From Candidatus Saccharimonadales bacterium (GTDB taxonomy: Bacteria; Patescibacteriota; Saccharimonadia; Saccharimonadales; EFPC-124): a DNA stretch of 64,000 nucleotides. The DNA lies in NCBI GenBank assembly GCA_035710125.1, contig DASTDY010000063.1, positions 86,446 to 150,445 on the forward strand, read 5' to 3'. Shown here piece after piece: positions 4,119 through 60,033 of the stretch. Position 1 is the stretch's first letter. Every line of letters starts with the position of its first letter. The notes beneath the pieces are model-generated. The model was not told where the DNA came from. It made no database searches and saw only the letters and a program-made list of their open reading frames with translations. The position numbers and the translations under genes are program-made.

Positions 4119-4163
4119 AACCGCCAGGCTGTGCAATACTCTTAAGTGCACCTATACAAACTA

Positions 4164-4315
4164 AAATATAAAGAGCGCAGCGAGGGATCTAGCCCGTTGA
4201 CCTGCCAGCAACCTGCTTTAAAAGTAAGGTGCTCCATCTAGCCCGCCGTAGTGTGGGAAAGATATAGCGATACCCGCAAGCTACCTTTCCGCCCCACTCG
4301 GCAGAAAGGTTTTTT
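4164..4315 (+). promoter_or_regulatory. SAM-I (S-box) riboswitch with terminator expression platform upstream of metK
   Basis: The sequence AUAUAAAGAGCGCAGCGAGGGAUCUAGCCCGUUGACCUGCCAGCAACC...AAGGUGCUCCAUCUAGCC...GGGAAAGAUAUAG matches the S-box core (AGAG, GAGGGA, GCCC, UGA, GCAACC, AAGGUGC, AGAUAU closing P1). A terminator follows at 4284-4315. Confidence 0.8.
4284..4315 (+). terminator. intrinsic terminator of the SAM riboswitch; 3' arm contains the metK SD
   Basis: Stem CCTTTCCGCC/GGCAGAAAGG (one mismatch) followed by a T6 run. GAAAGG (4304-4309) lies 7 nt before ATG 4317. Confidence 0.7.
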
Positions 4316-4316
4316 A

Positions 4317-5444
4317 ATGCCTCAATTTTTTACCTCAGAATCGGTGTGCGCCGGCCACCCAGACAAAGTAAGCGACCAAATTAGCGACGCCATGGTAGAC
4401 GCACTTATGGCCCAAGATCCGCAAAGCCGTGTTGCTGTAGAAACCGCCGTGACTGCAAACAGGGTTGTGCTCCTGGGCGAGGTAAACACCAAAGCCAAGG
4501 TAGACTTTGCGCAGATCGCCAAAGACGAAGTCAAACGTTTAGGTTACGATATTCGCGAGCTAGAGTTCCACCACGAAGACGTTCAAGTAGATGTTTTTAT
4601 CCGTCAACAATCCGCCGAAATTGCAGCCGGAGTAGACGACAAAGGCGAGGGTGAAGGGGCTGGCGACCAAGGTATGATGTTTGGCTACGCCTGCAACGAG
4701 ACTCCCAATCTTATGCCGTTACCTATTGAGCTTGCCCACCGCCTAGCGCGCAAATACGACGAGCTGCGCGAGACCGGTACGCTGCCATTTTTACGCCCAG
4801 ACGGCAAAGCCCAGGTAACAGTAGAATATAAAGACGGCAAGCCAGTAGGCGTACACCATGTAGTATCGGCAGTACCACACGACGAGAGCGTTGGCTTAAA
4901 AGAGGTACAAGACGCCCTTTACCAACATGCAATCCAGCCAATTTTAGGTGAATATAATTTAAGTATTGACCCGTCGAAACAATTTGTCCTAAACGGCACG
5001 GGGGTGTGGCATTTTTCTGGCCCAGCGGCCGACGCTGGACTTACTGGCCGTAAAATTGTAGTCGATACATATGGCGGCTACGCCCGCGTGGGCGGTGGCG
5101 CGTTTAGCGGCAAAGACTGCTCTAAGGTCGACCGTTCTGGCGCATATGCCGCCCGCTACTTGGCTAAAAATATTGTAGCAGCGGGTTTGGCTGACCGCGC
5201 CGAAGTTGCCCTGGCCTACTTTATTGGTGCGCGCCGGCCGGTCATGCAAGAGGTAGAGACCTTCGGTACTGCAAAAGCATCTCCCGAAGAAATTAAAGAA
5301 TTCGTGGACTCACTCCTAGATACATCTGTTAAGGGCATAATTGAAGGCCTTAATTTGCGTCGCCCAATCTATAAACAGACCGCCGCTTACGGCCACTTTG
5401 GTCGGACTGGTGTGCCATGGGAAGACGTGAAGACTCCCCAGTAA
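4317..5444 (+). CDS. metK: S-adenosylmethionine synthetase
   Basis: MPQFFTSESVCAGHPDKVSDQISD..., GAGDQGMMFGYA and GGGAFSGKD motifs. The upstream 22 codons of the listed ORF overlap the riboswitch terminator and were trimmed. Confidence 0.95.
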   Translation: MPQFFTSESVCAGHPDKVSDQISDAMVDALMAQDPQSRVAVETAVTANRVVLLGEVNTKAKVDFAQIAKDEVKRLGYDIRELEFHHEDVQVDVFIRQQSAEIAAGVDDKGEGEGAGDQGMMFGYACNETPNLMPLPIELAHRLARKYDELRETGTLPFLRPDGKAQVTVEYKDGKPVGVHHVVSAVPHDESVGLKEVQDALYQHAIQPILGEYNLSIDPSKQFVLNGTGVWHFSGPAADAGLTGRKIVVDTYGGYARVGGGAFSGKDCSKVDRSGAYAARYLAKNIVAAGLADRAEVALAYFIGARRPVMQEVETFGTAKASPEEIKEFVDSLLDTSVKGIIEGLNLRRPIYKQTAAYGHFGRTGVPWEDVKTPQ

Positions 5445-30659: not shown

Positions 30660-31264
30660 TGCAGACCGAAATCGAAGTAAAGTTTTTGGGTGTAAACCAC
30701 GACGACGTGCGCAAAAGATTGCAGGCCGCAGGCGCGGTATGCGAACAGCCAATGCGTTTAATGCACCGCACCGTTATGGATTTTCCAGATTTACGGCTGC
30801 AGACGTCGTCGGACGGTTTTGTACGCATCCGCGACGAAGGCAACAAGGTAGAGGTAACGTACAAGCAGTTTAATAAGGCGCTTTCAATCGACGGCGCCAA
30901 AGAGGTTGCCGTGGTTGTAGACGATTACGCCCGCGCCATAAAACTTTTCGAAGCCATTGGTTTGCAGGCTAAATCCGAACAAGAATCCAAACGCGAAAAC
31001 TGGCGCTTAGGCGATTGCGAGATTGTGCTAGACGAATGGCCCTGGCTGCGCCCTTACATTGAAATCGAAGGCCCGCATGAAGATGCAATCCGTTCACTCG
31101 CCCAAAAACTAGGCTTTAATTGGGCCGACGCGGTAACCGGATCTGTTACCGTAGCCTACCGCGCAGAATACGACATACCGCGTGAATTGTCGGTTGATAA
31201 GAATCCGCGGATTGCTTTTGACGAGCCAGTGCCGGAGTGGATGGCCAAAACGCGTCGTGCATAG
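30659..31264 (+). CDS. CYTH-domain protein (CyaB/triphosphatase-like)
   Basis: MQTEIEVKFL... carries the EXEXK motif; the start overlaps the rny stop (TAATG). Confidence 0.8.
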   Translation: MQTEIEVKFLGVNHDDVRKRLQAAGAVCEQPMRLMHRTVMDFPDLRLQTSSDGFVRIRDEGNKVEVTYKQFNKALSIDGAKEVAVVVDDYARAIKLFEAIGLQAKSEQESKRENWRLGDCEIVLDEWPWLRPYIEIEGPHEDAIRSLAQKLGFNWADAVTGSVTVAYRAEYDIPRELSVDKNPRIAFDEPVPEWMAKTRRA

Positions 31265-31333
31265 AAACTTATAGTTATCCTAGGCTTCCTTCTTGTAAAG
31301 TTTTCTTGAGGCTTTGCTATTATTAAATGTAAT

Positions 31334-32164
31334 ATGAGATTCAAGCCATTTTCTGAAAAGTATGATTTTACTAAGTCTGAATTAACCGAACATTACCCGT
31401 TATATTTACGCCGACCAATAGCACAATGGTTTCATGATTTGGTTGCAGAAAATGAACTCGGATATTTTACAAATTCATATATCTCAAGGATTTCAGGACT
31501 AAAACCTGGTTTTGTAAATAATTTAAATACAATCTTTCGAGAGAATTTTCCAACCGATCTCCAAGACTTTATTAAAAAAATATTTAGTGACGCCGATCTA
31601 ACCAGCAACTTTCTGGCGCTACTTCTTCAGAATATATGCAAAGGAGTGGATGCTGTTAGATTAGAAATGATACTCTCAAATGGCGGTTCCGCATTTGCTG
31701 TAGAAAAAGTCGATAAATCTGCTAATTCATATGATGCAGGCGTCTATGATTTAGTAAAAAGAGTGCCGGAAGTAGTGGCTAAACAGGCGGCGGAAGCACT
31801 TACGTCTAATGAGTTAATAAAGGAAGCGTGGAATGCTTGCTACTCTCGCAATCCAGACTACGAAAGAACAGTAAATAGATGCTGTGATGCACTTGAACAT
31901 ATGCTTCGAGATAAGTATGAGTCGAAAAATGTTAAACCTCAGCTCGGCATGCTCATAAAGAATTTACAGACAACCCCTGGCAAATTAAGTTTTAAGGGCG
32001 ATACTTTATTAAGAAATAAAGCAGATCTAATGAGTCTAGTTAGCTCGGCAACTCAGGTTCGAGGAAGCCATACAGCTGGTACCGGACGCAAACCTACCTC
32101 TGAAGAAGCTGAATTTATTTTGCATTCAACAATTCTAATTTGGAATGTGCATCAAGCTATCTAA
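31334..32164 (+). CDS. hypothetical protein, possibly Abi_C/HEPN-like (tentative)
   Basis: 276 aa, AT-rich. The C-terminal region ...RCCDALEHMLRDKY...VRGSHTAGTGRKPTSEEAEFILHSTILIW resembles Abi_C/TIGR02391-type helical domains, but no clean Rx4-6H is present. Confidence 0.55.
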   Translation: MRFKPFSEKYDFTKSELTEHYPLYLRRPIAQWFHDLVAENELGYFTNSYISRISGLKPGFVNNLNTIFRENFPTDLQDFIKKIFSDADLTSNFLALLLQNICKGVDAVRLEMILSNGGSAFAVEKVDKSANSYDAGVYDLVKRVPEVVAKQAAEALTSNELIKEAWNACYSRNPDYERTVNRCCDALEHMLRDKYESKNVKPQLGMLIKNLQTTPGKLSFKGDTLLRNKADLMSLVSSATQVRGSHTAGTGRKPTSEEAEFILHSTILIWNVHQAI

Positions 32165-32279
32165 AGCGCACTTTGGCCAAAAGTTTTCCACTATATCTAT
32201 TATTGAACTCCGAGGGAGTGTGTGGTTTTATACCTGCGTTGAGCAATTGCTTAACAAACCTCGGCGATTGGAAATACGC

Positions 32280-32783
32280 ATGAAAAGGTTGCGTGCGCGC
32301 ATTGCCACGGCAATGTTGGGCGTGCTACTGGTGTTGGGCGGGGCTGCAATGCACGTTCCGGCAGCAGTAGCAGCGGAAAGTTGCTATGGCGACTACTGTT
32401 CGGGCAAGGATCCGTCGCGTGTGGGAGTCGGCGGCGTTCCATGTGCGGATCGTGCCGACACCGTTCGTTCCGCCAGGGTCAACATGAGCGATGGGTTTGG
32501 CGGGTACTACGAGGTTGGCACCCTTGAAGTGCGCTGGTCGGCACGCTGCCAGACCAACTGGGCGCGGCTCAGTCTGGAAAGAGACGCCTACGGCATTCTG
32601 GGGATCAACATCCTGCAGGACACCGGCTACAAGCAATACAAGTCGACCAGAGGGTTTGACGGCGGAACAAGCAAAGGTGTGTTCTGGACGAACATGATCT
32701 ACTCACCAACGGCGCGCGTCATGGCGTATCTGCATCACACGTGGCCGCCGCCCTGCACCGTGTGCGCGACTGAGTGGGTGTAA
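32280..32783 (+). CDS. secreted DUF2690-type protein, GC-rich cassette D
   Basis: Signal peptide MKRLRARIATAMLGVLLVLGGAAMHVPAAVA, then CYGDYCSGKDPSRVG..C...EVRWSARCQTNWARL, the Cys pattern of DUF2690. The upstream part of the listed ORF was trimmed. Confidence 0.8.
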   Translation: MKRLRARIATAMLGVLLVLGGAAMHVPAAVAAESCYGDYCSGKDPSRVGVGGVPCADRADTVRSARVNMSDGFGGYYEVGTLEVRWSARCQTNWARLSLERDAYGILGINILQDTGYKQYKSTRGFDGGTSKGVFWTNMIYSPTARVMAYLHHTWPPPCTVCATEWV

Positions 32784-32805
32784 GAACTCTGCGCCAAGGG
32801 AGATA

Positions 32806-32848
32806 GTGAGGTCGGCTAGTTTTGTACAATAGAACTAGCCGACCTCAC
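32806..32848 (+). terminator. perfect 16-bp hairpin after cassette D
   Basis: GTGAGGTCGGCTAGTT-11 nt-AACTAGCCGACCTCAC. Confidence 0.55.
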
Positions 32849-32874
32849 GGATAATAAAATTTAAAGGACAAAAT

Positions 32875-33108
32875 ATGGAATTCGACACAGTTATATGGAG
32901 CATTGTGATCTTTGCAAAACTTTTATTAGTAAATTTGGTACTGCCTATCGTTATCGTAATTTATTTGGACAAGATATTATCCTTCATGCGCATTAGCAAA
33001 TTTTTAGATATAAATACCACCCGTCTAATCCGTAGTCTTCTTATTGTCTATGCGTTTATTTTTGGAGTTATTAAACCCTTGCTTGCCCTAATTACCGGGA
33101 AATTTTAA
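32875..33108 (+). CDS. small membrane protein (2 TM)
   Basis: 77 aa, hydrophobic; AAAGGA SD; first gene of a five-gene same-strand array. Confidence 0.55.
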   Translation: MEFDTVIWSIVIFAKLLLVNLVLPIVIVIYLDKILSFMRISKFLDINTTRLIRSLLIVYAFIFGVIKPLLALITGKF

Positions 33109-33440
33109 TGGCACAAACCCAAAATATTAATCGTTCAACCAGGTTTGTCTTAATTGGTGTATTTATCGCCATTTTCAGTTACGTATTAACTCCAATCTTG
33201 ATTTGGCTATTTAGCTTTCTGGAGTTTCTTGTACCCCTTAACGTAGCGATTGGAACTATGCTGGCGACATTTGCAGGCTACGCGCTACAAGAATGTATCA
33301 GGGGATCAAAATTGGTTTTAAGAAACAAGTTGATTGCTGCTGTTCTGGCACTTACTACGGTAGTTATTGCGAATATACTTTTCCAAATGTGGGTGCGATA
33401 TTCCTTAACCCAGCAGATTCAAGAGATTATGAGTCGCTAA
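33108..33440 (+). CDS. small membrane protein (3 TM)
   Basis: 110 aa; TAATG overlap with the upstream gene. Confidence 0.55.
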   Translation: MAQTQNINRSTRFVLIGVFIAIFSYVLTPILIWLFSFLEFLVPLNVAIGTMLATFAGYALQECIRGSKLVLRNKLIAAVLALTTVVIANILFQMWVRYSLTQQIQEIMSR

Positions 33441-33472
33441 TAATGCGAGTAAGTATGATCTAACGTAAGGTT

Positions 33473-33856
33473 ATGGATTTTCAGCTCTTAATCAATATTC
33501 TTATTGCCTTCAGCATACTTCTTGCGCTAACAAGCAGGTATATGCGCGTAGGTTTGATAACAGGAACCATTAGTTTCTTGGCGCTGGCAGTTTATAGCTA
33601 TATAGAAAATCACGATGTTCTGCTGGCAATCCTCAGTATTGGTGGCATGCTAGGGTTAATCTACGAACTCGCAAAATCAATCCGTAACACAAAATATCAT
33701 CTCGATAAAAAAAGTAAACTTATAATAAGTGGCACCATTATGCTTTTAGGGGTCTGGCACACTAGTCTTGGCTCGTTGTCGCCTTACCTAATTTCGGGCA
33801 TCTTTGCAGTGGCTCTTGTGATCGTAGATATAAAAAAGCCGAAACAAAAGGTTTAG
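33473..33856 (+). CDS. small membrane protein (4 TM)
   Basis: 127 aa; TAAGG SD. Confidence 0.55.
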   Translation: MDFQLLINILIAFSILLALTSRYMRVGLITGTISFLALAVYSYIENHDVLLAILSIGGMLGLIYELAKSIRNTKYHLDKKSKLIISGTIMLLGVWHTSLGSLSPYLISGIFAVALVIVDIKKPKQKV

Positions 33857-33859
33857 TCC

Positions 33860-34237
33860 GTGGACGCACCAACTCCACATATTTTATTTAGCATCATGCT
33901 TGGATTAGTGGGCATAGCCGGCATTACGACAGCGATGGCGTTTGTGATGAATGAAAATACACGCAGCCTTGGCGTGTTCATCGGCATAACGTTTATTACT
34001 TTGTTAGTGGCTCAGATTATCACTACCGGCTATTCAGAGTTTGGTAATGTGCCGTACTGGTGGATATTGCTTATTATTGCCGGTGTAGGCTTGCTTCTGT
34101 CGGTGTGGCAATGCAAAAGAATGCCTCGTAAATCACTGCTTAACAAAGAATTCTGGCAGCAGTGGAGGCGGGCGTTTTGGATGCTCTTTGGGGTTATGTT
34201 TATTGTGGGTGTATTGAAGTCTCTTTTTAGGGTATAA
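33860..34237 (+). CDS. small membrane protein (4 TM)
   Basis: 125 aa; GTG start 3 nt after the previous stop. Confidence 0.5.
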   Translation: MDAPTPHILFSIMLGLVGIAGITTAMAFVMNENTRSLGVFIGITFITLLVAQIITTGYSEFGNVPYWWILLIIAGVGLLLSVWQCKRMPRKSLLNKEFWQQWRRAFWMLFGVMFIVGVLKSLFRV

Positions 34238-34286
34238 ATATGCTCACTTCTTTATAAGCCTGAATAATTATCACCGGAGGGTTCTA

Positions 34287-34622
34287 ATGGAGTTTAAAGA
34301 TTTTGTACAGTATGCTGGCCTGACTATCTATAACATAATTATGGCCTACTTTCTAGGACTCATGATTTTTTGGACTTTGCCGGTGCCACACTTATCATGG
34401 CAGTTCAGTCTATTGCCTGGTTACGTAATTGGTGCAGTCATAAGTAGCTCACTGACATTCTTAATCATTAAAAAATGGCACGTAGAAAAAACGATAAAAA
34501 TAATCGTGGCTACGATTGTCCTAGTTGTTACGGTTGCCGTAAGTTATAGTGTCGTGACTGAGCGGTCAGATGCATTCACGGCACGGGCTCACCAATATAT
34601 GCAAGATAACTACGAAAAGTAA
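34287..34622 (+). CDS. small membrane protein (3 TM)
   Basis: 111 aa; GGAGGG SD. Confidence 0.55.
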   Translation: MEFKDFVQYAGLTIYNIIMAYFLGLMIFWTLPVPHLSWQFSLLPGYVIGAVISSSLTFLIIKKWHVEKTIKIIVATIVLVVTVAVSYSVVTERSDAFTARAHQYMQDNYEK

Positions 34623-34701
34623 ATAATATTTGTCGGTTCTAATTGATTCATCAGGCTCTGACAGTTCTTGCTGCTACCAGGTATAATCTTTTAGGGTTCA
34701 G

Positions 34702-35133
34702 ATGAATCGGAGGCGACAGTTGAAGTACATGACCGTAAGCGAAGGTCAACGCCGGACTTTTACTATCACATTGGGCCTCAGCGAGGGCTATGGAGACAAT
34801 TCCATAACCCACCATCCCAGTACTGCCGATAAGGTTGTTAGTACCTGGATGCAGGCTCGGTCAGAAGAAAGTCTGTTGACGATCGGCGGCTTTTTCAGCG
34901 AAATCAAGCTTCACTACACTTATCACGAGGGTGATAAGCCGCAGGCCAGGCACGAGCCAGGACTGCGTTTTTCGGGCGAAGTTTCGATTCGACGCCTAAG
35001 CGCTGTGTCCGATGCAGAGATTGAGGAAGCCTTGATTAATCTTGCAGATGCACTGGGTGCGGCACTGGGTCAGAAGCACGTGACTGTGACATATCGCGAA
35101 AGGGTTTGGATCCGAGAATTCCACGCCGGATAG
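34702..35133 (+). CDS. hypothetical protein, moderately GC-rich cassette E
   Basis: 143-aa ORF with no family recognised. An alternative start lies at Met10. Confidence 0.45.
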   Translation: MNRRRQLKYMTVSEGQRRTFTITLGLSEGYGDNSITHHPSTADKVVSTWMQARSEESLLTIGGFFSEIKLHYTYHEGDKPQARHEPGLRFSGEVSIRRLSAVSDAEIEEALINLADALGAALGQKHVTVTYRERVWIREFHAG

Positions 35134-38512: not shown

Positions 38513-39337
38513 TTACAGCGTGCCCCATTGGTACCAGGGCAGGTAGTACTGCGCGCCGTACAGGTCTCCGTAGATGCCGTACTTCTGGCCGGAGCCGACG
38601 TACAGGTAGCGGTTGGCCACCCCACCGCTCGGGGCGGGGTAGTCCCAGTGCATGCCGGTGTAGGTGCCAGAGGCTCCGTTCGGGGCAAGCTCGTGGCTCA
38701 GGACCGACGCGTAGGCCGTGCCGCTGTTCTTGTACTGCAGCAGCACGTAGCCGGTGTATCCCGGGTACTTGTAGAACGTCATCGACACGTTGCAGCTGTA
38801 GTTGCGCGACTGCCACTCGTCGTAGTCGTAGACGCCGGTCGACGGGTTGTACGTGTAGAGCGTGGCCGACCACGTGTTGGAGTTGTTTCCCCGGAACGAC
38901 GGGAACGCGTAGCTGTACGCGTTGACGTACCCGTAGAAAACGGTGTAGGCGCCGGTCGCGTAGTTGTAGAAGTAGACGTAGTAGTAGCGGGTGGTACTGG
39001 TGTTGTTCTTGACGCCGGTTTGCACCAGGCCTTGCTGGCAGTACTGGCCGGGCGACACGAAGTCCACGGTCGCTACGTAGCCGGCTTGTGCCGTGACGCC
39101 GCCGTCGACCCGCTTGCCGGTCACGTCGGTCTTGACCGCCGCGGTCTTGCCCCGCTGCTTGTCGGCTACAGCGTCCTTTCCAGGCTCGACCTTTTGGGTC
39201 ACGGTCGAGACTGGCGCCTTGGCGGCGTCGGCGGTGTCAGGCGACGGTGCTGCCAGCGCAGAAGGAACCACCAGCCCCAGGCTCGCCAGCGTGAACACGC
39301 ACGCCATAGCAAGCCTTCTTAGCCGTATGCTTCTCAA
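38513..39337 (-). CDS. secreted Tyr/Gly-rich protein, GC-rich cassette F
   Basis: TTG start 5 nt after GGGAGG. Signal peptide (M)RSIRLRRLAMACVFTLASLGLVVPSALA|AP. The mature part is very Tyr-rich (YYYVYFYNYATGAYTVFYGYVNAYSYAF...). Long shadow ORFs appear in other frames. Confidence 0.7.
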   Translation of the reverse strand: MRSIRLRRLAMACVFTLASLGLVVPSALAAPSPDTADAAKAPVSTVTQKVEPGKDAVADKQRGKTAAVKTDVTGKRVDGGVTAQAGYVATVDFVSPGQYCQQGLVQTGVKNNTSTTRYYYVYFYNYATGAYTVFYGYVNAYSYAFPSFRGNNSNTWSATLYTYNPSTGVYDYDEWQSRNYSCNVSMTFYKYPGYTGYVLLQYKNSGTAYASVLSHELAPNGASGTYTGMHWDYPAPSGGVANRYLYVGSGQKYGIYGDLYGAQYYLPWYQWGTL

Positions 39338-39588
39338 CGAAACCTCCCATTGCAAGATGAACCCTCCGTAAGGGCTCATACCTGCGAGCCGTTTTTGGCC
39401 GCAGGGTGGCGGGCGCGTAAGCATCCACAACACTGCGGCCAATCATTTAACGAACTTTACTTAAGTAACCATTCGCAATTATGTTTTGTTGCGCCCTGGC
39501 CGTCAAGGTATTTTTTGCAGCGCCAGTAGTAGGGCCGCTTGTTGCTATGTGTTCTGCGTGGGATAGGCCTTCGTGCTACACTTACAAC

Positions 39589-46879: not shown

Positions 46880-47389
46880 TCATCGCAGAATCCACGCCTT
46901 CACCTTGTGCACTGCGTAGCCGTGTTGGAATGCTCCGGAGCGCATGATACGCTCCAGGTTGGCCGCAGCGGTGTGTGGGTTGTCGAGCACTTGTTCGTAC
47001 TCGAGGAGCAAGTTGAGCATGCAGTCTTCCATGTGGGTGTAGGGGCAGAGCTCGTTGGTGGCGATCTTGATGATCGTGTTGTGGTTGGAGCTCAGCTCGT
47101 ACTCGATGCTGAACGCGAGTCGGGAGTCGCTCAGCGTCATGGCGCAACAGCCGACTCCTAGCTCCCACACCATTTTCTGCCGGCCTCGTTCGACGTCTGC
47201 GACTACCTTTTCGTAGAATGGACACCGGAAGAACCTTTGGCCGGCGTGCACGCGGTATGAGCCGCCGCGCCTGGTGACCAAAAAGGTGTCGGCGTCTACC
47301 TTGACAAAGACGTACGAGTAGACGCGCGCCAGCAGAACGGCCAACAAGCAAACTGCAACCGCTGCCAAAAAAACATATATGAGTTGCAT
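46880..47389 (-). CDS. N-terminally anchored membrane protein with SPFH/band-7-like beginning, GC-rich cassette G
   Basis: 169 aa; TM MQLIYVFLAAVAVCLLAVLLA, then YVFVKVDADTFLVTRRGGSYRVHAGQRFFRCPF (SPFH-like pattern). The alternative R-rich frame 46788..47351 was rejected. Confidence 0.55.
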   Translation of the reverse strand: MQLIYVFLAAVAVCLLAVLLARVYSYVFVKVDADTFLVTRRGGSYRVHAGQRFFRCPFYEKVVADVERGRQKMVWELGVGCCAMTLSDSRLAFSIEYELSSNHNTIIKIATNELCPYTHMEDCMLNLLLEYEQVLDNPHTAAANLERIMRSGAFQHGYAVHKVKAWILR

Positions 47390-48850: not shown

Positions 48851-49060
48851 TCAAGTATCTAGCGGTTTTTGCAACAAGCCTTTACCTAATGTGACAGATC
48901 GCATTACTGTATTTTCTGCATTCTGCTGGAGCACTTGCGCAGTGCCTGGTTCGTGATCTTCAATAAGGCCGGCAACGGCCACGCGCTCGGCCTCGGTTAA
49001 ATTTGGTTCAAATTCGTAGCGGTTTACTTCTTGGGATGGTACTTTTGTAGGTTCAGACAT
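48851..49060 (-). CDS. small hypothetical protein
   Basis: 69-aa acidic ORF (MSEPTKVPSQEVNRYEFEPNLTEAERVAV...); weak SD. The upstream part of the listed ORF is the repeat element. Confidence 0.35.
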   Translation of the reverse strand: MSEPTKVPSQEVNRYEFEPNLTEAERVAVAGLIEDHEPGTAQVLQQNAENTVMRSVTLGKGLLQKPLDT

Positions 49061-49067
49061 ACCAATT

Positions 49068-49113
49068 TTGGGCATGCAAAAAGCCCTACTAGCATCTTTT
49101 TGCATGGTTGTGC
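49068..49113 (+). repeat. direct repeat copy 1 (46 nt) downstream of 3-TM cassette I
   Basis: TTGGGCATGCAAAAAGCCCTACTAGCATCTTTTTGCATGGTTGTGC shares a 27-nt identical core with 50301..50327. Confidence 0.85.
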
Positions 49114-49137
49114 AGTTTTAGATGTGTTCGGGCTGTT

Positions 49138-49167
49138 GCCAGGGAGGGGGTGATGTCCCTCCCTGGC
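49138..49167 (-). terminator. perfect 11-bp GC-rich hairpin after cassette I
   Basis: GCCAGGGAGGG-8 nt-CCCTCCCTGGC. Confidence 0.5.
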
Positions 49168-49183
49168 GCCTCGGGTAGTGCGG

Positions 49184-49549
49184 TCAGACGTGCGTGGCGA
49201 CCGGTTCTGCGTGCGCTGCTCCTTGCTGTTCCTTCTTGTGGTCTTCGACGGTGGTGAGTGTGAGGCCCACGGGCAGGGCGGCGATCAGGACGAAGATGGC
49301 GAGCGAGAGTGGCGCGGTGAAGAGCCCCCAGTCGTAGTTGTCCCACGCGCGCAGCTCGATCGAGATCGAGATCGCGCACACCTCGCAGACGAGGATGGCG
49401 ACCACGAGCGTGTGGGTCCAGAAGTTGACGCCGCCCTTGCGTCCGTTGAGGTAGGCTGCGTAGAAGGCAACGGTCAGGCTGATCAGGGCGAAGAGCAGGG
49501 TGTCCGAGACAAACGGCACCAGGCTGTTCGAGACCGGAGTGCAAGTCAT
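49184..49549 (-). CDS. 3-TM small membrane protein with charged C-tail, GC-rich cassette I
   Basis: 121 aa; GGGAG SD 6 nt upstream. Paralogue of 50254..50670 (shared AY..G, Glu in TM2, R..AW[DN], LP[VI]G). Confidence 0.65.
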   Translation of the reverse strand: MTCTPVSNSLVPFVSDTLLFALISLTVAFYAAYLNGRKGGVNFWTHTLVVAILVCEVCAISISIELRAWDNYDWGLFTAPLSLAIFVLIAALPVGLTLTTVEDHKKEQQGAAHAEPVATHV

Positions 49550-49596
49550 GAGGTTCTCCCGAGGGTAGGTGTAAGGCGGGGTGCCATTACACGTTC

Positions 49597-49625
49597 ATTA
49601 CATAATATTAGAACTTGTATGTCAA
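49597..49625 (-). promoter_or_regulatory. near-consensus sigma70-like promoter of cassette I
   Basis: Minus strand TTGACA-N17-TGTAAT. Confidence 0.55.
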
Positions 49626-49711
49626 GTTTATGTCTCTGGCGTACCTTCTTGTTTCTGACAAATAACTTAAAAGTGGTTTACGTAAGCTTAAAAAGTTGGC
49701 ACAATTAACCT

Positions 49712-50284
49712 ATGGAAAATACAGTATGCTACTTAATCGGTGGCGCAGCGCGCACTGGCAAAACAACTATGGCTAACGAGCTAGCCGTAGAGCATGGCAT
49801 AAAGCCGTTTTGTACTGATTCATTGCACGTTATGCTAACAAAATTAGTGCGTCGTCAAGACAACCCCGATCTTTTTTATACGCATGATCTTTCTGTTGAG
49901 CAGTTCTACGAGAAAAATAATACACCTCAGAAAGCGTTGGAAGCTACGGTTAAAGCCGCTCTTGCATCTGAATACGGGTTTACAGTATTCATAGAGCGTA
50001 TTTTGCCGTCCTGGCAGGTTATGGTAATAGAGGGCACGCTAATAACTCCAGGTTTTGTGAGCCGGCTGCGGCAGAAGTATCCAGACACTACATTTGAGGC
50101 GACCTTTTTGTACGATGATAACTTGGATCGGATTCGTGATAGAATCTACACCCATGGCCTGTATTACCGTACGCCCTATTCTGACAACATAAAGCCTAAA
50201 GAGGTCGCATACGTTCAGGCATGCAACGACTGGTATAAAAAAGAGGCAAAACGCTACAAAATGGAGTTAATACACATTTTGTAG
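49712..50284 (+). CDS. P-loop ATPase, 2-phosphoglycerate-kinase-like
   Basis: YLIGGAARTGKTTMANELA, ...CTDSLHVML, VIEGTLITP; 190 aa. Confidence 0.65.
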   Translation: MENTVCYLIGGAARTGKTTMANELAVEHGIKPFCTDSLHVMLTKLVRRQDNPDLFYTHDLSVEQFYEKNNTPQKALEATVKAALASEYGFTVFIERILPSWQVMVIEGTLITPGFVSRLRQKYPDTTFEATFLYDDNLDRIRDRIYTHGLYYRTPYSDNIKPKEVAYVQACNDWYKKEAKRYKMELIHIL

Positions 50285-50670
50285 ATATTAAACCTTGGGA
50301 ATGCAAAAAGCCCTACTAGCATCTTTTCGCGTTGGGTTGTGCTGTTCTTCTGCTCGTCGTTGCGCTTCTTCTGCTCGTTCTGGAACTCCTCTTCGCCGGC
50401 GCAGCGGGCACCGATCGGCAGGACGAAGATCGCGACGATGGCGATGATCGCCACCCAGATGCTCCACCACATGAAGGCGTCGGTGTTCCACGCGTTCCAG
50501 CGGAACGTGAGCGCGACCATGCCGGCCTCGGCGAGCAGCAGTGACAGGAACTCCAGGGAGTAAACCCAGGACTCGATGGGACGGTTGCGCAGGCCGCTGA
50601 CGTACGCCGTGAAGGTGGCGTGCGTCACGCCGACGACGGCGAAGATCATGCAGAGGGCGTTGATGACCAT
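50254..50670 (-). CDS. 3-TM small membrane protein, GC-rich cassette J (paralogue of cassette I; C-terminus reads through the repeat)
   Basis: Start ATG 50670 sits behind the conserved leader ...CCTACCCTCGGGAGTTCCTC. The ORF tail overlaps the convergent P-loop gene by 31 nt. Confidence 0.55.
   Translation of the reverse strand: MVINALCMIFAVVGVTHATFTAYVSGLRNRPIESWVYSLEFLSLLLAEAGMVALTFRWNAWNTDAFMWWSIWVAIIAIVAIFVLPIGARCAGEEEFQNEQKKRNDEQKNSTTQREKMLVGLFAFPRFNIYKMCINSIL
50295..50342 (+). repeat. direct repeat copy 2 (48 nt), inside the 3' end of cassette J ORF
   Basis: TTGGGAATGCAAAAAGCCCTACTAGCATCTTTTCGCGTTGGGTTGTGC. Confidence 0.85.
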
Positions 50671-50718
50671 GAGGAACTCCCGAGGGTAGGGCAAAGGCGG
50701 GTGCCGTATGCTGAATGT

Positions 50719-50747
50719 ATTATATAATTAATAACTTAAAACGTCAA
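50719..50747 (-). promoter_or_regulatory. near-consensus sigma70-like promoter of cassette J
   Basis: Minus strand TTGACG-N17-TATAAT. Confidence 0.55.
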
Positions 50748-50804
50748 ATACGTTTGCTCTTTTAAGGTATTCCGAGAGCATGATAAATAAAAAATAATTT
50801 CACC

Positions 50805-50880
50805 TGGTACCCCGGGTTGGACTCGAACCAACGGCCAGAAGCTTAGAAGTCTCCTGCTCTATCCACTGAGCTACCGGGGC
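50805..50880 (-). tRNA. tRNA-Arg (UCU)
   Basis: Manual cloverleaf: acceptor GCCCCGG/CCGGGGT, anticodon loop CTTCTAA, T-loop TTCGAGT, CCA encoded. There is one A-G mismatch at the base of the anticodon stem. Confidence 0.85.
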
Positions 50881-51541: not shown

Positions 51542-53071
51542 TTAAATCTCGCGGATCACCTCTATATTTGCGCCAATGCTATTAAGGCGGGCGGCCAAAT
51601 CTTCGTACCCGCGGTTAATCGAATACACGTTGCGCAGCACAGACACGCCATCTGCCGCCAACATACCAATCAAAATCAGTACAGCCGGACGTAAGGCGGG
51701 CGGGCAAATAACCTCGGCGGCGCGCCAGTGGGTGGGGCCGTTAATGTAGGCGCGGTGCACATCGGCTAGGGTTACGTCGGCATTTAATTTGGTAAGCTCT
51801 GTGTAATAAATGGCGCGGTTTTCGTATGTCCAGTCGTGGACCAACGTTTTGCCTCGGGCGTTGGCGGCAATCGGCACAAAGTAAGGCAGGTTGTCCATGT
51901 TCATGCCGGGGTCGTCGTGGGCTTCTAGTTTATCTTCTAGCGCCACAAGGTCAGATGCGTCAATACACTGGATATCTACTAAATTAGTGTGGCCGTTTTT
52001 AGCTTTGTACGGCTCGCTTACCTTGAATTTAAAGTTCATTTTTTCTAGTTTTAGCAGTTCTAAGTCTAAAAAGTCGATTGGCGCACGGCGGATGTGTATA
52101 GGTGAATTGGTAGTTGCGGCAATACTTAAAAAGGTCATTGCCTCTATTGGGTCTTCGCTTGGCCAATACTCTACATCTTTATTGATGTTTTTTACGCCGT
52201 GGATCCGCAGTGTGTGGGTGCCAATACCCTCTATTTTTACGCCCAGTTTGGTCAAGAAATGGCATACATCCACCACCATATAGTTGCTCGCGGCGCGGCG
52301 GATCTCTACCACGCCGTCAATGCGGGCGGCTGCCATAACGGCGTTTTCGGTTGGCGTGTTACCGCTTTCGTACATGACAATTTTGCCGGGGTTACGTGGT
52401 TTGGCGGTGCAGTTATACCAACCGGTTACGGTGTCTACGCTAAGGCCCATTTCTTCTAATGCGTACAGATGCGGCTTAATGGTGCGTTCGCCTAGCTTAC
52501 ATCCACCGGCAAACGGAATGCGAAATTCGGGCATTAGGTGCATAAGCGGCCCCATGTACATAATGACGCTGCGGGTTTTGCGGCCGGCTGCTGCGTCGAT
52601 TTTGTTCATTTGTAGTTTTGCAGGTGGTTTTATTTCTAGGTCGCCAAGGTCGTTGAGCCAGCGCACTTTAACGCCAATGCTTAGCATAACTTCTATAAGC
52701 CGGTTGACCTCTTCAATCTTAGGCATGCGGCGTAGGGTAGTGGTGCCTTTGTTTAGTAATGATGCGCATAAAAGGCCCACTGCAGCGTTTTTACTAGTAC
52801 GGACAGTAATATCACCCTTGAGTTTATGGCCGCCCTCAACTCGGAAGTTAAGCGTGCCAGGGCGGTGCAGCGAAATAATTTCGCTATTTAAGGCGTCGCT
52901 AATGCGCGCCAGCATTTCCATGCTTAGGTTTTGACCCCCGTTTTCTATGCGGTTGATGGCACTCTGGCTGGTGCCCAGCGCCTGCGCAAACTGAGCCTGG
53001 GTAAGGCCGCGGTCTAAACGGGTTTGTTGAATAAGTTTACCTATTTTTTGCTTGTAGTCGGTTTCGCTCAT
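51542..53071 (-). CDS. murA: XRE-type HTH domain fused to UDP-N-acetylglucosamine 1-carboxyvinyltransferase (MurA-like)
   Basis: The first roughly 70 aa are LTQAQFAQALGTSQSAINRIENG (an HTH_3 pattern). The rest has the EPSP/MurA fold with FAGGCKLGERTIKPH (active-site Cys loop). Confidence 0.85.
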   Translation of the reverse strand: MSETDYKQKIGKLIQQTRLDRGLTQAQFAQALGTSQSAINRIENGGQNLSMEMLARISDALNSEIISLHRPGTLNFRVEGGHKLKGDITVRTSKNAAVGLLCASLLNKGTTTLRRMPKIEEVNRLIEVMLSIGVKVRWLNDLGDLEIKPPAKLQMNKIDAAAGRKTRSVIMYMGPLMHLMPEFRIPFAGGCKLGERTIKPHLYALEEMGLSVDTVTGWYNCTAKPRNPGKIVMYESGNTPTENAVMAAARIDGVVEIRRAASNYMVVDVCHFLTKLGVKIEGIGTHTLRIHGVKNINKDVEYWPSEDPIEAMTFLSIAATTNSPIHIRRAPIDFLDLELLKLEKMNFKFKVSEPYKAKNGHTNLVDIQCIDASDLVALEDKLEAHDDPGMNMDNLPYFVPIAANARGKTLVHDWTYENRAIYYTELTKLNADVTLADVHRAYINGPTHWRAAEVICPPALRPAVLILIGMLAADGVSVLRNVYSINRGYEDLAARLNSIGANIEVIREI

Positions 53072-54674: not shown

Positions 54675-55829
54675 CTACTCCGAGGTGCCGTTGGTGCTGT
54701 GCTGGTCGGTTGCGGTCGGGTCGGTTGCTGCGGGCGCCTCGGGCTGGGTCGGGTCGACAGGTTTCATGTCGGTCTCGGTTTTCGGGAACCTCGAGTTTAC
54801 CTCGTTCAGCACTAGGGCGGCGATCGGAAGCGAGCGGAGGGTGGCCTCTGCGTTCCACATGGCGGGTTCTGCGGTCTGTGCCGCTTCGGCCACGGGTTCC
54901 TTGTCTGCCTGCGGAGGGTCAGTCACCCTGTCGTCGCTGGTCTGGGGCGTGGGCTCAGGTTCAGCGACCTCCGACACGGGTTCTGGTGCAGGTTCGGGCT
55001 CATCTTCCATTTCGGGCGCCGTTGCCTGTTCCGGTTCGAGGCCGGCTTCGGGCTCGAACTCCTGCTCGAACTCTGGCGTTGTCTCCTCTGGGGCTGCGTC
55101 GTCGTAGCCCGCGCTGTAGCCCTGATCGTCGGCTTCAGCCTGAGACTTCTCGATGAGTGCCAGACCGTTGCCTCCTGTTGCCACACTCCCGTTGTGCGCG
55201 AAGTAGCCCGTGGCTTGGCCAGATCCCTGTGCGCCGTTGCCAGGCGCCTGCCAGACGGGAGACGCCGGTGCGAGCGCTTGTTGCGGCGCCGACGAAGTCA
55301 AAACCCGCAGCTGCTGAGGTGCCGTTGTCGGCAGACCATGCGGCGGCTGCCGGAAGGTGTACTTGGGAGCCGCCTGGCCGATCGCCCGCTGGGCGTGGCG
55401 ACGGAACTCCTCCAGCTCGCGGCCGGCAGCCTGCGTGAACGCGGTCAGCGACGCCTGCTGTCGTTCTGTGAGTTGAGCTGTGACGATGCTCGCTCTGGCC
55501 GTGACTTCCTCGAGGATGTCCTTGACTGCAGCGTCCAGGTTCATCTGCGGGTTGAGTTTTTTCACCAGTTCAGCTGTGTGGTCGTGCCACGCCAGCAGGT
55601 CATCGTGCCGGTCGTCGCTGGCCTTCTTGCGGCGTCTCAACATGACGATGATTACCACCATCGCCACGAAGATCAGCGCCAAAAAACCCAGCACGATCCA
55701 CTGGAATGGGGTAAAAATGCCAAACACAGACACAGTGTCTGCCCCTTCGGGTAGGGAATTGCTCTCTGTTAAACGCGTACGAACCCCTTTTTGCGCGGCG
55801 CGGTGTGCGCGCCAGACGTTCGGCTCCAA
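54675..55829 (-). CDS. single-pass membrane protein with Pro/Glu/Ala-rich acidic low-complexity C-terminal half, GC-rich cassette K
   Basis: TM FQWIVLGFLALIFVAMVVIIVML-RRRKK; tail ...EFEQEFEPEAGLEPEQATAPEMEDEPEPAPEPVSEVAEPEPTP.... Start is uncertain (TTG 55829 or an internal GTG before the TM). Several shadow ORFs are present. Confidence 0.6.
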   Translation of the reverse strand: MEPNVWRAHRAAQKGVRTRLTESNSLPEGADTVSVFGIFTPFQWIVLGFLALIFVAMVVIIVMLRRRKKASDDRHDDLLAWHDHTAELVKKLNPQMNLDAAVKDILEEVTARASIVTAQLTERQQASLTAFTQAAGRELEEFRRHAQRAIGQAAPKYTFRQPPHGLPTTAPQQLRVLTSSAPQQALAPASPVWQAPGNGAQGSGQATGYFAHNGSVATGGNGLALIEKSQAEADDQGYSAGYDDAAPEETTPEFEQEFEPEAGLEPEQATAPEMEDEPEPAPEPVSEVAEPEPTPQTSDDRVTDPPQADKEPVAEAAQTAEPAMWNAEATLRSLPIAALVLNEVNSRFPKTETDMKPVDPTQPEAPAATDPTATDQHSTNGTSE

Positions 55830-59274: not shown

Positions 59275-60033
59275 ATGAGGATCCGATTGGTTGCGCTTGG
59301 TCTGGCGGCACTCGCTTTGAGTGCCTGCTCGAGCACCGAACCGCAGCAGACGGCGCCCGCGGCCACCTCGGCCACCACAACCACCACGGCCACACCGACC
59401 CCGACCAGCCCGGTCGACATGGTGGCCGAGTCCATCAAGGACAAGGCGTTCGCGTACTACACGTCGACTGAGCGCCGTCAGCGCATCGACGCGTTTCTCA
59501 CGAACGAGGGCGTGCGTTACGCCAAGCTGATGGAGTCGGGCGAGATCCCGTCGAGAGCCCGCGGCTGGGCCAGCACCACGCCGCCACCGCGCAACGGCTA
59601 CGGCCTGCTCGAATCGGTCAACGGGGGCAACACGGTCAGGCCGTTCCTGAGCGTTGTCGTGTTCTTCAACAACGGCAAGGTCGATCTGAACCAGCAGGTT
59701 CTGTCGGTCTACATCATCAAGGGCAACCGCTCTGTCGATGTGGACGGCAGGCTGGTCGTGAAGGTGGACGGCACGCTGTTGCGTGACACCCCCGGGGCCT
59801 ACGGCTGGCGGATCGACGGCTCCAAGGACGACAACCACGGCTTCATGCTCGACAAGCGCGGCCGCGGCTCGTTCGACCCCGAGCTTCCTCTCGACCCGAA
59901 CAGGAAGTACACGGTGCTGTCCCGCAAGAGCATCGGCGTTCTCGTCACCGAGACCGAGCTCCGCGATGCCGACAACATGCTGTTCCAGCTGCTCGGCACC
60001 GAGTTCGCGGTGAACCCCTCCGACTGGCGGTAA
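59275..60033 (+). CDS. lipoprotein, GC-rich cassette L
   Basis: MRIRLVALGLAALALSAC (lipobox LSAC) and a Thr/Pro-rich linker ATSATTTTTATPTPTSP. There is a long shadow ORF on the opposite strand. Confidence 0.75.
   Translation: MRIRLVALGLAALALSACSSTEPQQTAPAATSATTTTTATPTPTSPVDMVAESIKDKAFAYYTSTERRQRIDAFLTNEGVRYAKLMESGEIPSRARGWASTTPPPRNGYGLLESVNGGNTVRPFLSVVVFFNNGKVDLNQQVLSVYIIKGNRSVDVDGRLVVKVDGTLLRDTPGAYGWRIDGSKDDNHGFMLDKRGRGSFDPELPLDPNRKYTVLSRKSIGVLVTETELRDADNMLFQLLGTEFAVNPSDWR

Follow-up and report, generated by a model that had tools for sequence, protein, structure and literature searches.

Type I toxin–antitoxin systems provide the closest described parallels to the locus reported here. The descriptors published for their toxin messenger RNAs (mRNAs) comprise a 5′ stem-loop, a Shine–Dalgarno (SD) sequence matched by an anti-SD, a long-distance interaction between the 5′ and 3′ ends and a 3′ terminator, and the encoded toxins are 20–60 amino acids long (PMC8594479); three further papers are relevant to type I toxin mRNAs locked by 5′–3′ pairing (PMC5416894, PMC9841398, PMC6733600). 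The locus lies in a 64,000-nucleotide stretch of DNA (the window) taken from a 229-kb contig of a soil Candidatus Saccharimonadales metagenome-assembled genome, and it consists of two related units, each built around a gene for a small protein with three transmembrane (TM) helices. Like hok/Sok of plasmid R1 and aapA1/IsoA1 of Helicobacter pylori, the units combine a stand-alone hydrophobic membrane product and a strong promoter with a 5′ stem-loop, an anti-SD towards the 3′ end that is predicted to mask the SD, and a structured 3′ terminator, and the full-length transcript is predicted to be poorly translatable. They differ from these systems in the product, which has 110–121 residues and three helices instead of being a single-helix peptide of 20–60 residues, in the lack of a convincing antisense RNA, and in showing no sequence or Rfam similarity to them. 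Our preferred reading, held with about even confidence, is that each unit is a self-contained single-gene module whose mRNA would close on itself and hide its ribosome-binding site (RBS). We know of no description of a type I system from the phylum Patescibacteria, and an RNA lock of this kind would be a further form of a known control, acting on a new protein family in a phylum without described precedent.

Both genes are read from the reverse strand. The coding sequence (CDS) of unit 1, or copy 1, spans 49184–49549 (−) and encodes 121 amino acids with three TM helices and a charged tail (NCBI HET9412122.1, VFO38_04715, hypothetical protein), and that of unit 2, or copy 2, spans 50254–50670 (−) and encodes 138 amino acids (HET9412124.1, VFO38_04725, hypothetical protein), its native part being 50338–50670. 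The elements listed around them in the initial annotation are all present, at the coordinates given there or a few bases away. Promoters of the form TTGAC[AG]-N17-T[GA]TAAT were located in front of both genes, as had been claimed. The one of unit 1 (49597–49625, −) has a −35 box TTGACA (49625–49620), an AT-rich 17-nucleotide (nt) spacer and a −10 box TGTAAT (49602–49597), and the one of unit 2 (50719–50747, −), TTGACG-N17-TATAAT, agrees with 11 of the 12 consensus positions. The unit 1 spacer can be aligned with those of unit 2 and of the three related contigs that proved informative, namely L001, which carries an orthologue of copy 1, L003, which carries an intact copy 2, and L126, which encodes a distant homologue, P0008. 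The unit is represented by three independent sequence types only, L126, L127 and L128 being identical.

The predicted transcript of unit 1 begins, at about +1, with a hairpin (GUGUAAUGGCACCCCGCCUUACAC; 49569–49592, −; −10.3 kcal/mol, z-score −4.0). Such a 5′-terminal hairpin of 8–9 base pairs (bp) is present in six of six leaders, with stems that differ through compensating changes (GGC/GCC versus AAC/GUU in L001). It is followed by the ribosome-binding segment (CCUCGGGAG; 49541–49564, −), which holds the SD GGGAG (49560–49556), the AUG (49549–49547) and the first codons. The unit 2 leader (50671–50711, −) is laid out in the same way, with a 5′ hairpin GCA..GGCACCCGCC..UGC (50711–50691) and the SD GGGAG (50681–50677). 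The shared leader proposed earlier is borne out by a 34-nt repeat (49547–49580 and 50668–50701) with 85% identity and by the string CTCCCGAGGGTAGG, which occurs exactly twice in the window against 0.13 expected occurrences. Each promoter also contains, in its reverse complement, a second promoter-like site directed the opposite way: GTGCCA-N16-TAATAT at 49581–49609 (+) and GTGCCG-N16-TATAAT at 50701–50729 (+). The −35 box of these reverse sites falls in the conserved GGCAC of the leader hairpin, and the one at unit 1 could serve the divergent P-loop gene that lies between the units.

The 3′ end of unit 1 starts with a segment (49169–49195, −) composed of the last codons, the UGA (49186–49184) and the anti-SD CCCGAGG (49175–49169). 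Within the 3′ untranslated region (UTR) there follows a perfect 11-bp GC hairpin (GCCAGGGAGGG-ACAUCACC-CCCUCCCUGGC; 49138–49167, −), which L001 unit 1 and L003 unit 2 also have; together with the gene's own stop codon, it had been attributed to copy 1 before, and it was found at 49139–49166. Further downstream, a long interrupted stem resembling a terminator (49078–49134, −) is formed by AGCCC/GGGCU, AC/GU, CAUCU/AGAUG and UGCA/UGCA and ends in five uridines (49082–49078). The prediction is shared by L001 unit 1 and L003 unit 2, and across these units the arms are conserved while the apical part varies. The direct repeat noticed downstream of the genes is confirmed, with 94% identity over 36 nt (49068–49103 and 50295–50330) and an identical core of 27 nt (49074–49100 and 50301–50327), none being expected by chance. 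In full-length folds the repeat provides the 3′ arm AGAUGCUAGUAGGGCU and the U-tract, and the 5′ arm is the equally conserved AGCCCGAACACAUCU, so that the repeat probably represents one side of the long terminator stem together with its U-tract. The second copy, at 50295–50330 (−), matches in sequence as the remnant of that arm and U-tract in unit 2. The local 8-bp hairpin that the initial annotation had drawn in the repeat can indeed form, and its pairing is kept (A-U, G-U, G-C) in all four copies; it is mutually exclusive with the terminator stem, however, and the full-length folds all use the longer stem.

Folding predicts a contact between the two ends of the transcript. The leader segment CCUCGGG(AG), which includes the SD, pairs with CCCGAGG just past the stop codon in window unit 1, L001 unit 1 and L003 unit 2, in the minimum free energy as well as in the centroid structure, with probabilities of 0.95–1.0; for the SD/start segment of window unit 1 against the 3′ UTR, the pair probabilities are 0.97–1.0. 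The start-codon region pairs in turn with the stop-codon region, through bases that differ between the paralogues (AUGAC/GUC-UGA in unit 1, UGGUCA/UGACCG in unit 2). The 3′ UTR of L126 has no sequence similarity to the others (0.50–0.55), and the part of it that immediately precedes the terminator pairs with 22 nt spanning the SD AAGGAG and the GUG start codon. The interaction would strongly lower the probability of the SD being unpaired, to 0.00–0.03 in unit 1 and to 0.11 in L126, where that of the start codon falls to 0.0. The full-length folds of the three transcript types are more stable than those of shuffled sequences (z −3.0, −3.1 and −4.9). When only the 3′ partner segment was shuffled within the full-length RNA, 0/100, 0/100, 3/100 and 1/100 sequences reached the observed pairing, the value for window unit 1 being 0/100. 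The conserved regulatory leader that had been offered as one option is therefore the favoured one, extended to the 3′ UTR, since pairing between leader and 3′ UTR is predicted in three independent sequence types. These indications, like all those that bear on the mechanism, are computational and come from folding and alignment.

Of 43 other genes in the window, a single one attains the pairing score of the units. It is the P-loop gene (score 0.649), whose leader (49672–49720) would pair with 50330–50359 (+), shortly beyond its own stop codon, the partner being the end of the truncated copy 2. As this pairing is absent in both L001 and L003, it is probably due to chance and was not retained as a real signal. 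Three short background genes show predicted 5′–3′ pairing of 0.25–0.46.

Conservation of the flanks was compared with that of the coding sequences in three classes, the paralogues (unit 1 versus unit 2), the copy-1 orthologues and the copy-2 orthologues, with shuffled sequences reaching maxima of about 62–66% for both flanks. Between the paralogues, the 5′ region from the −35 box to the start codon is 74–81% identical and the 120-nt 3′ UTR 85%, whereas the CDS is 56% identical at the nucleotide level. Copy-1 orthologues share 74–84% of the 5′ region, 90% of the CDS and 96% of the 3′ UTR; copy-2 orthologues share 95% of the 5′ region and 96% of the CDS, the truncation of window copy 2 leaving no value for the 3′ UTR. 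The earlier statement that the flanks are better conserved than the coding sequence thus stands for the paralogues and for the 3′ UTR of the orthologues, and fails for the 5′ region of the copy-1 orthologues. Within the 5′ region, fixed positions (promoter hexamers, hairpin, SD block) are interspersed with freely varying ones. Flank similarity is 0.76 and 0.76 within a genome versus 0.81 and 0.74 across genomes; there is no within-genome excess and hence no sign of gene conversion, and a concerted evolution of the flanks was rejected on this ground. The flank motifs have no further occurrence in the window. A 19-mer of the repeat gave two chance matches in GTDB species representatives and none in JGI metagenomes, and in IMG/VR neither an 18-mer of the repeat nor the GC hairpin pattern was found. 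The leader pattern CCTCGGGAGNNCCTCATG proved too loose as a search probe, its 120 matches all being unrelated RBS contexts in high-GC organisms.

The comparison of strains for unit number that had been proposed gave a positive result. In L001 the order is tRNA-Arg, P-loop gene, unit 1, a 132-residue open reading frame (ORF), a 180-residue ORF and tRNA-His; no copy 2 separates the first two of these, and 17 unrelated nt occupy the gap. In L003 copy 2 is intact, with its own stop codon followed by a 3′ UTR like that of copy 1 (CCCGAGG, the GC hairpin, CAGCCCGAACACATCTAA and the repeat), from which it follows that window copy 2 carries an 82-bp deletion. Its junction lies at 50337/50338 (−), it corresponds to L003 positions 527–608, and it is flanked by two short direct repeats, ACCAGC and ACCCAGC. 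Lost with it were the stop codon, the anti-SD, the GC hairpin and, of the terminator stem, the 5′ arm, so that the last 26 codons of window copy 2 are a read-through that crosses the repeat and overlaps the convergent P-loop gene at its end, and the predicted 5′–3′ pairing drops to 0.001. The suspected loss of the original 3′ end of copy 2 and the read-through are therefore confirmed, but the deletion lies upstream of the repeat and not at it, where a recombination had been supposed. L126 offers a different genomic context with the same layout: an AT-rich promoter TTGACT-N17-TATAAT, a leader containing GGCACC, a GC-rich CDS and a hairpin terminator. The copies are old paralogues of a very rare family, and copy 2 is a strain-variable insertion or deletion beside tRNA-Arg. 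The lineage itself is present in the sequencing runs SRR7186533, SRR7186493 and SRR18218241.

Downstream of unit 1, the window holds a small acidic ORF (48851–49105, −) that probably starts at 49060 and has 69 amino acids. It is an in-frame deletion derivative of the 132-residue protein of L001 (L001 1305–1703), from which about 60 residues between two ‘VAV’-like motifs are missing; 35 nt upstream of the 132-residue gene in L001 are also missing from the window. The locus in the window genome has therefore undergone three deletions, the 82-bp one in copy 2 included.

The relatedness of the two strongly diverged proteins, seen first in shared motifs, holds in BLASTP, where 104 residues align with 22% identity (E = 3e-9). 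Three hydrophobic segments are present in either protein, and an AlphaFold2 model shows three helices at low confidence (predicted local distance difference test score 54.7). The loop charges give a weak prediction of an N-out/C-in topology, and the charged C-terminal tail is mixed or acidic. Native products have 110–121 residues. Y33 and G36 (Y-x-x-G after TM1), W69 after TM2 and P93 in TM3 are invariant in the whole family, and the TM2 glutamate is not retained in P0008. A word-indexed search of 5.8 billion proteins returned two relatives of copy 1, P0002 (81%) and P0003 (68%), and one of copy 2, P0004 (95%). When 1.84 billion cluster representatives were searched exhaustively with a profile, a single distant member came to light, P0008 (E = 1.6e-4), which aligns with the copy-2 type over 56 residues at 34% identity (E = 6e-8); the remaining matches were repetitive junk. 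Among these representatives the family is tiny, consisting of the copy-1 type, the copy-2 type and P0008 only, and its protein clusters are all singletons or pairs. A six-frame profile search of the window revealed no paralogues beyond the two known copies. In Pfam, NCBIfam, PHROGs and PADLOC no family model is matched above its curated threshold, the best match outside PHROGs being DUF5993 (E = 0.044) and PADLOC giving none at all, and no homologue was found in 50,697 phage genomes, in IMG/VR viral contigs (single-protein searches) or in plasmids. No neighbouring gene is conserved in all three genomic contexts. The ratio of nonsynonymous to synonymous substitutions (dN/dS) is 0.66 (copy 1 versus its L001 orthologue) and 0.48 for the proteins versus 0.10–0.14 for neighbouring genes, and on these ratios the proteins appear weakly constrained and fast-evolving.

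In the mechanism that we favour, a near-consensus sigma-70 promoter would drive a transcript of about 500 nt that starts with a stable hairpin and continues with a strong SD and AUG, the CDS for a three-TM protein of 110–121 residues and a structured 3′ UTR of about 120 nt, in which the anti-SD after the stop codon, the 11-bp GC hairpin and the long terminator stem with its U-tract follow one another. Once the transcript is finished, its SD/start segment would pair with the stop/anti-SD segment, so that the whole CDS becomes a closed loop with the RBS covered. The mRNA would then be stable and poorly translated, and translation would need either the time before the 3′ UTR is made or a trigger such as cleavage, an RNA partner or melting. 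A stable mRNA with poor translation would fit a membrane protein that is harmful in excess. Window copy 2 would have lost the 3′ lock and the terminator through its 82-bp deletion. The flanks would outlast the protein because the promoter, the 5′ hairpin, the SD partner and the 3′ structures are under selection at the RNA level, and because the pairing partners must remain complementary while the protein is weakly constrained.

Several observations weigh against this mechanism. The accessibility of the SD in unit 2 is not lowered further by the interaction (0.19 to 0.30). Shuffling evaluated on the duplex only is significant in unit 1 (0–5/500), but not in unit 2 (87–110/500) or L126 (48–102/500). 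The SD is mostly paired locally already in nascent fragments, and what the 3′ UTR contributes may therefore be stability and not repression. Units 1 and 2 do not differ in the 7-bp SD/anti-SD core, which, with only three sequence types, leaves covariation unscorable base by base. Copy-1 orthologues vary more in the 5′ region than in the CDS. Finally, window copy 2 lacks its 3′ partner and terminator while its reading frame is still open; either the lock is dispensable or window copy 2 is decaying, and the loss would fit such a decay or a protein that is not strongly toxic.

A fully fledged type I toxin–antitoxin system, in which the product is a three-TM membrane toxin and the self-locked mRNA is checked in addition by a cis antisense RNA running from the repeat across the 3′ UTR, goes one step beyond this mechanism and seems to us unlikely. 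The mRNA architecture corresponds in silico to the published descriptors (5′ hairpin, SD/anti-SD, 5′–3′ interaction, 3′ stem-loops), the gene stands alone with no neighbour kept across the three contexts, and a strong promoter precedes a hydrophobic product. The repeat contains a promoter-like site on the opposite strand, TTGGGC-N16-TAGCAT (49068–49099, +; low confidence), which also occurs at 50295–50326 and in L001 and L003; in the form TTGGGN-N16-TAGCAT it is kept in all four copies of the repeat. This arrangement recalls the convergent type I systems of Bacillus subtilis, txpA/RatA and bsrG/SR4, in which toxin mRNA and antitoxin RNA overlap at the 3′ end of the former, since the candidate antisense promoter lies at the 3′ end of the unit, in the repeat, and faces the 3′ UTR. 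It differs from them in the weak promoter match, the missing terminator on the antisense strand and the size of the protein. The antisense site agrees with only 7–8 of 12 consensus positions, no U-tract terminator follows it on that strand of the repeat, and L126 has no equivalent promoter-like site. No Rfam family matches the transcript, and the product, with its three helices, exceeds the toxin sizes given above (PMC8594479). As for the mRNA, the anti-SD is situated upstream of two strong 3′ hairpins, which makes an activation by 3′ trimming in the manner of hok or aapA1 unlikely. The loss of lock and terminator in window copy 2, without disruption of its ORF, would be unexpected for a potent toxin, and the survival of this unlocked copy counts mildly against strong toxicity. 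The predicted layout of the mRNA suits a type I system, and the size of the product does not.

The units might instead be an ordinary duplicated gene whose flanks keep generic signals of strong expression, the end-to-end pairing being a by-product of GC-rich sequence; we give this account, too, a low chance. The −35 and −10 boxes, the SD and the start codon make up about a third of the 5′ region, CCTCGGGAGnnCCTCATG turns up as a chance RBS context in more than 120 unrelated metagenome contigs, the duplex-only test is non-significant in two of the three types, and some predicted 5′–3′ pairing is frequent in short transcripts, as in the three background genes mentioned above. Against this, the identity of the 3′ UTR (85% where the CDS has 56%, and 96% where it has 90%) goes far beyond the needs of a terminator, the full-length tail-shuffle is significant in all three types, and the pairing recurs in L126 with unrelated sequence. 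Pairing of mRNA ends is also described for genes of other kinds. In icaR of Staphylococcus aureus, the UTRs of the mRNA are reported to control translation by base pairing, the 3′ UTR binding to the 5′ UTR around the SD (PMC3868564), and in hbs of Bacillus subtilis an interaction of the two UTRs is reported to help link the stability of the mRNA to its translation (PMC5737220). A 5′–3′ UTR interaction need not imply a toxin: the products there are a transcription factor and a histone-like protein, respectively. The units described here differ from both cases in that the pairing comes right after the stop codon, closes a GC-rich CDS of 360 nt and recurs in diverged paralogues.

The product could also be an immunity or protection protein against a membrane-targeting toxin, with diverged copies matching toxin variants, a role that would be compatible with any of the RNA models and that we judge improbable. 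Immunity proteins of pore-forming colicins are small membrane proteins with three or four helices, expressed from their own constitutive promoters, and the units likewise encode a small polytopic membrane protein in a stand-alone gene with its own promoter. The elevated dN/dS (0.48–0.66) and the two diverged paralogues of strain-variable copy number would agree with such a role. However, no toxin gene lies nearby, the library scans, PADLOC included, show no similarity to immunity or defence families, and an RBS lock would be unexpected for an immunity protein that is needed constitutively.

The base composition of the units sets them apart. The GC content of the two coding sequences is 0.62 and 0.61 versus a window mean of 0.50, and the GC content at third codon positions (GC3) is 0.87 in copy 1 and 0.95 in the native part of copy 2 versus 0.47–0.57 in the neighbours; most window genes range from 0.43 to 0.58, and the genome has a GC3 of about 0.5. 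Only codon position 3 of the ORF frame shows the excess, so these are coding sequences and not GC-rich RNA genes, an option that is ruled out by this enrichment and by the absence of any Rfam family matching the units. The GC3 anomaly travels together with the AT-rich promoter and with the GC-rich leader and terminator. The CDS of P0008 also has a GC3 of 0.93, and the L126 contig (1–5394) is a mosaic in GC3, from 0.58 to 0.93, all of whose proteins are singletons. So extreme a GC3 suggests that the whole unit came from a foreign, high-GC source, and it is plausible that promoter-to-terminator units were imported from an unsampled high-GC lineage. A recent transfer from Actinobacteria could not be demonstrated, the homologues of the unit proteins and of the GC3-rich gene at 59275–60033 being present only on a handful of metagenome contigs, with no plasmid or phage matches, and no donor lineage was found for the units or for the other GC3-rich ORFans.

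Other single-gene islands of high GC3 are present in the window, at 38513–39442 (−; 0.85), 59275–60033 (+; 0.89), 54675–55829 (−; 0.73) and 46880–47389 (−; 0.76). Those at 38513–39442 and 59275–60033 have a promoter-like site upstream and a GC hairpin after the stop codon. Their products are secreted, lipoprotein-like or membrane ORFans without a Pfam family, and the protein of 59275–60033 has a single homologue (55%) among 5.8 billion proteins. In L126, consensus-like AT-rich promoters precede GC-rich genes, such as TTGCAT...TATAAT upstream of a 367-residue ORF. The compositional opposite is found at 31200–34800 (+), a low-GC island (0.34–0.42) in which four consecutive ORFs (33108–34622) encode multi-helix membrane proteins of 110–127 residues without a significant Pfam match.

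A foreign composition is one of the features expected of a mobile or exchangeable cassette, whose conserved ends would serve as recombination substrates, either homologous or similar to integron attC sites, and whose cargo would be swapped near tRNA genes. Close strains differ in whether they carry copy 2, as a promoter-to-repeat unit beside tRNA-Arg, and a third family member occurs in a different context. Integron cassettes are promoterless, carry an attC site at their end and are accompanied by an adjacent intI integrase gene with its attI site. The units share with them a conserved 3′ element that forms hairpins, a variable coding part and a strain-variable number, and differ in having their own promoters, no integrase nearby, a repeat without the GTTRRRY core and homologous cargoes, the element being found only with this three-TM gene family. 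The exchange of cassettes or alleles at the flanks, which the initial annotation had put forward, is not supported, given flanks that are no more alike within a genome than across genomes and the lack of their motifs elsewhere, be it in the window, the GTDB species representatives (the two chance matches aside), the JGI metagenomes or viral contigs. Besides, the two cargoes belong to one family, the L001 junction shows neither a clean empty site nor a target duplication, only 17 unrelated nt, and the 47.5–52.5 kb interval contains no recombinase gene. We consider this explanation quite improbable.

A class I holin of a lysis cassette, such as S105 of phage lambda, which has three TM helices, an N-out/C-in topology and a charged C-terminus, was the other function suggested by the architecture, and the units resemble it in size, in the three TM segments, in the charged tail and in the weakly predicted topology, and copy 2 has weak PHROG matches (an Rz-like spanin, 8e-5, over a TM-plus-charged stretch, and a holin family, 0.009); the likeness ends at the topology, however, and a holin is very improbable, as the tail is mixed or acidic and not basic, copy 1, P0003 and P0008 have no PHROG match, the phage genomes and IMG/VR contain no match, the three genomic contexts differ, and no endolysin, spanin or other phage gene lies nearby, the neighbours being housekeeping or ORFan genes, among them tRNAs, a sortase, a MurA-like gene and a putative serine hydroxymethyltransferase (SHMT).

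The chromosomal region around the units is ordinary in content. Its tRNA genes are tRNA-Gly, tRNA-His and two tRNA-Arg, and the tRNA-Arg(UCU) reported beside the array was located at 50805–50880 (−), unit 2 sitting between it and the P-loop gene. The latter, a P-loop NTPase gene (49712–50284, +) between the two units, has weak similarity to 2-phosphoglycerate kinase and AAA_18 and a dN/dS of 0.14; it is a neighbour, and its membership in the system is only putative. Scans of the ORFs and of the family libraries found no recombinase gene in the interval mentioned above and no phage genes near the locus. The sortase was recognized by a library match, and two further ORFs look like a Clp-type ATPase and the SHMT. 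The MurA-like gene (51542–53071, −) encodes an enzyme of the MurA/EPSP-synthase family with an N-terminal XRE-type helix-turn-helix (HTH_3, 3e-15; EPSP_synthase, 1e-39), an unusual fusion. Far from the locus, Rfam model RF00162 identifies an S-adenosylmethionine (SAM) riboswitch (4163–4268, +) with 51.9 bits, which exceeds the gathering score; the riboswitch immediately precedes ORF 4251–5444, a putative metK.

A wider interpretation, which we regard as speculative and unlikely, would make the locus the first RNA-locked toxin-like module in Patescibacteria. A polytopic protein of ~115 residues would be silenced by an mRNA circularised through SD/anti-SD and start/stop pairing, with a possible contribution of a 3′-overlapping antisense RNA; the promoter-to-terminator unit would move to tRNA-proximal sites, and it would count among a larger group of GC3-rich ORFans, lineage-specific and secreted or membrane-bound, which this epibiont lineage would have acquired or would maintain in order to interact with its host.

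Very little work has addressed post-transcriptional control in the Candidate Phyla Radiation, and most lineage-specific genes of such small genomes have no assigned role. If the preferred reading of a self-closing mRNA is true, the lock between the 5′ and 3′ UTRs would be a concrete, testable regulatory mechanism acting on a fast-evolving membrane protein, and it would mark the product as a tightly controlled one, be it a toxin-like, a lysis-like or a host-interaction factor. Flanks that are better conserved than the coding sequence, a pattern often taken as a sign of cassette exchange, can then mark mRNA ends that need to stay complementary. A separate puzzle is posed by ORFans with a GC3 of ~0.9 behind AT-rich consensus promoters, in a genome of 50% GC and with no identifiable donor.

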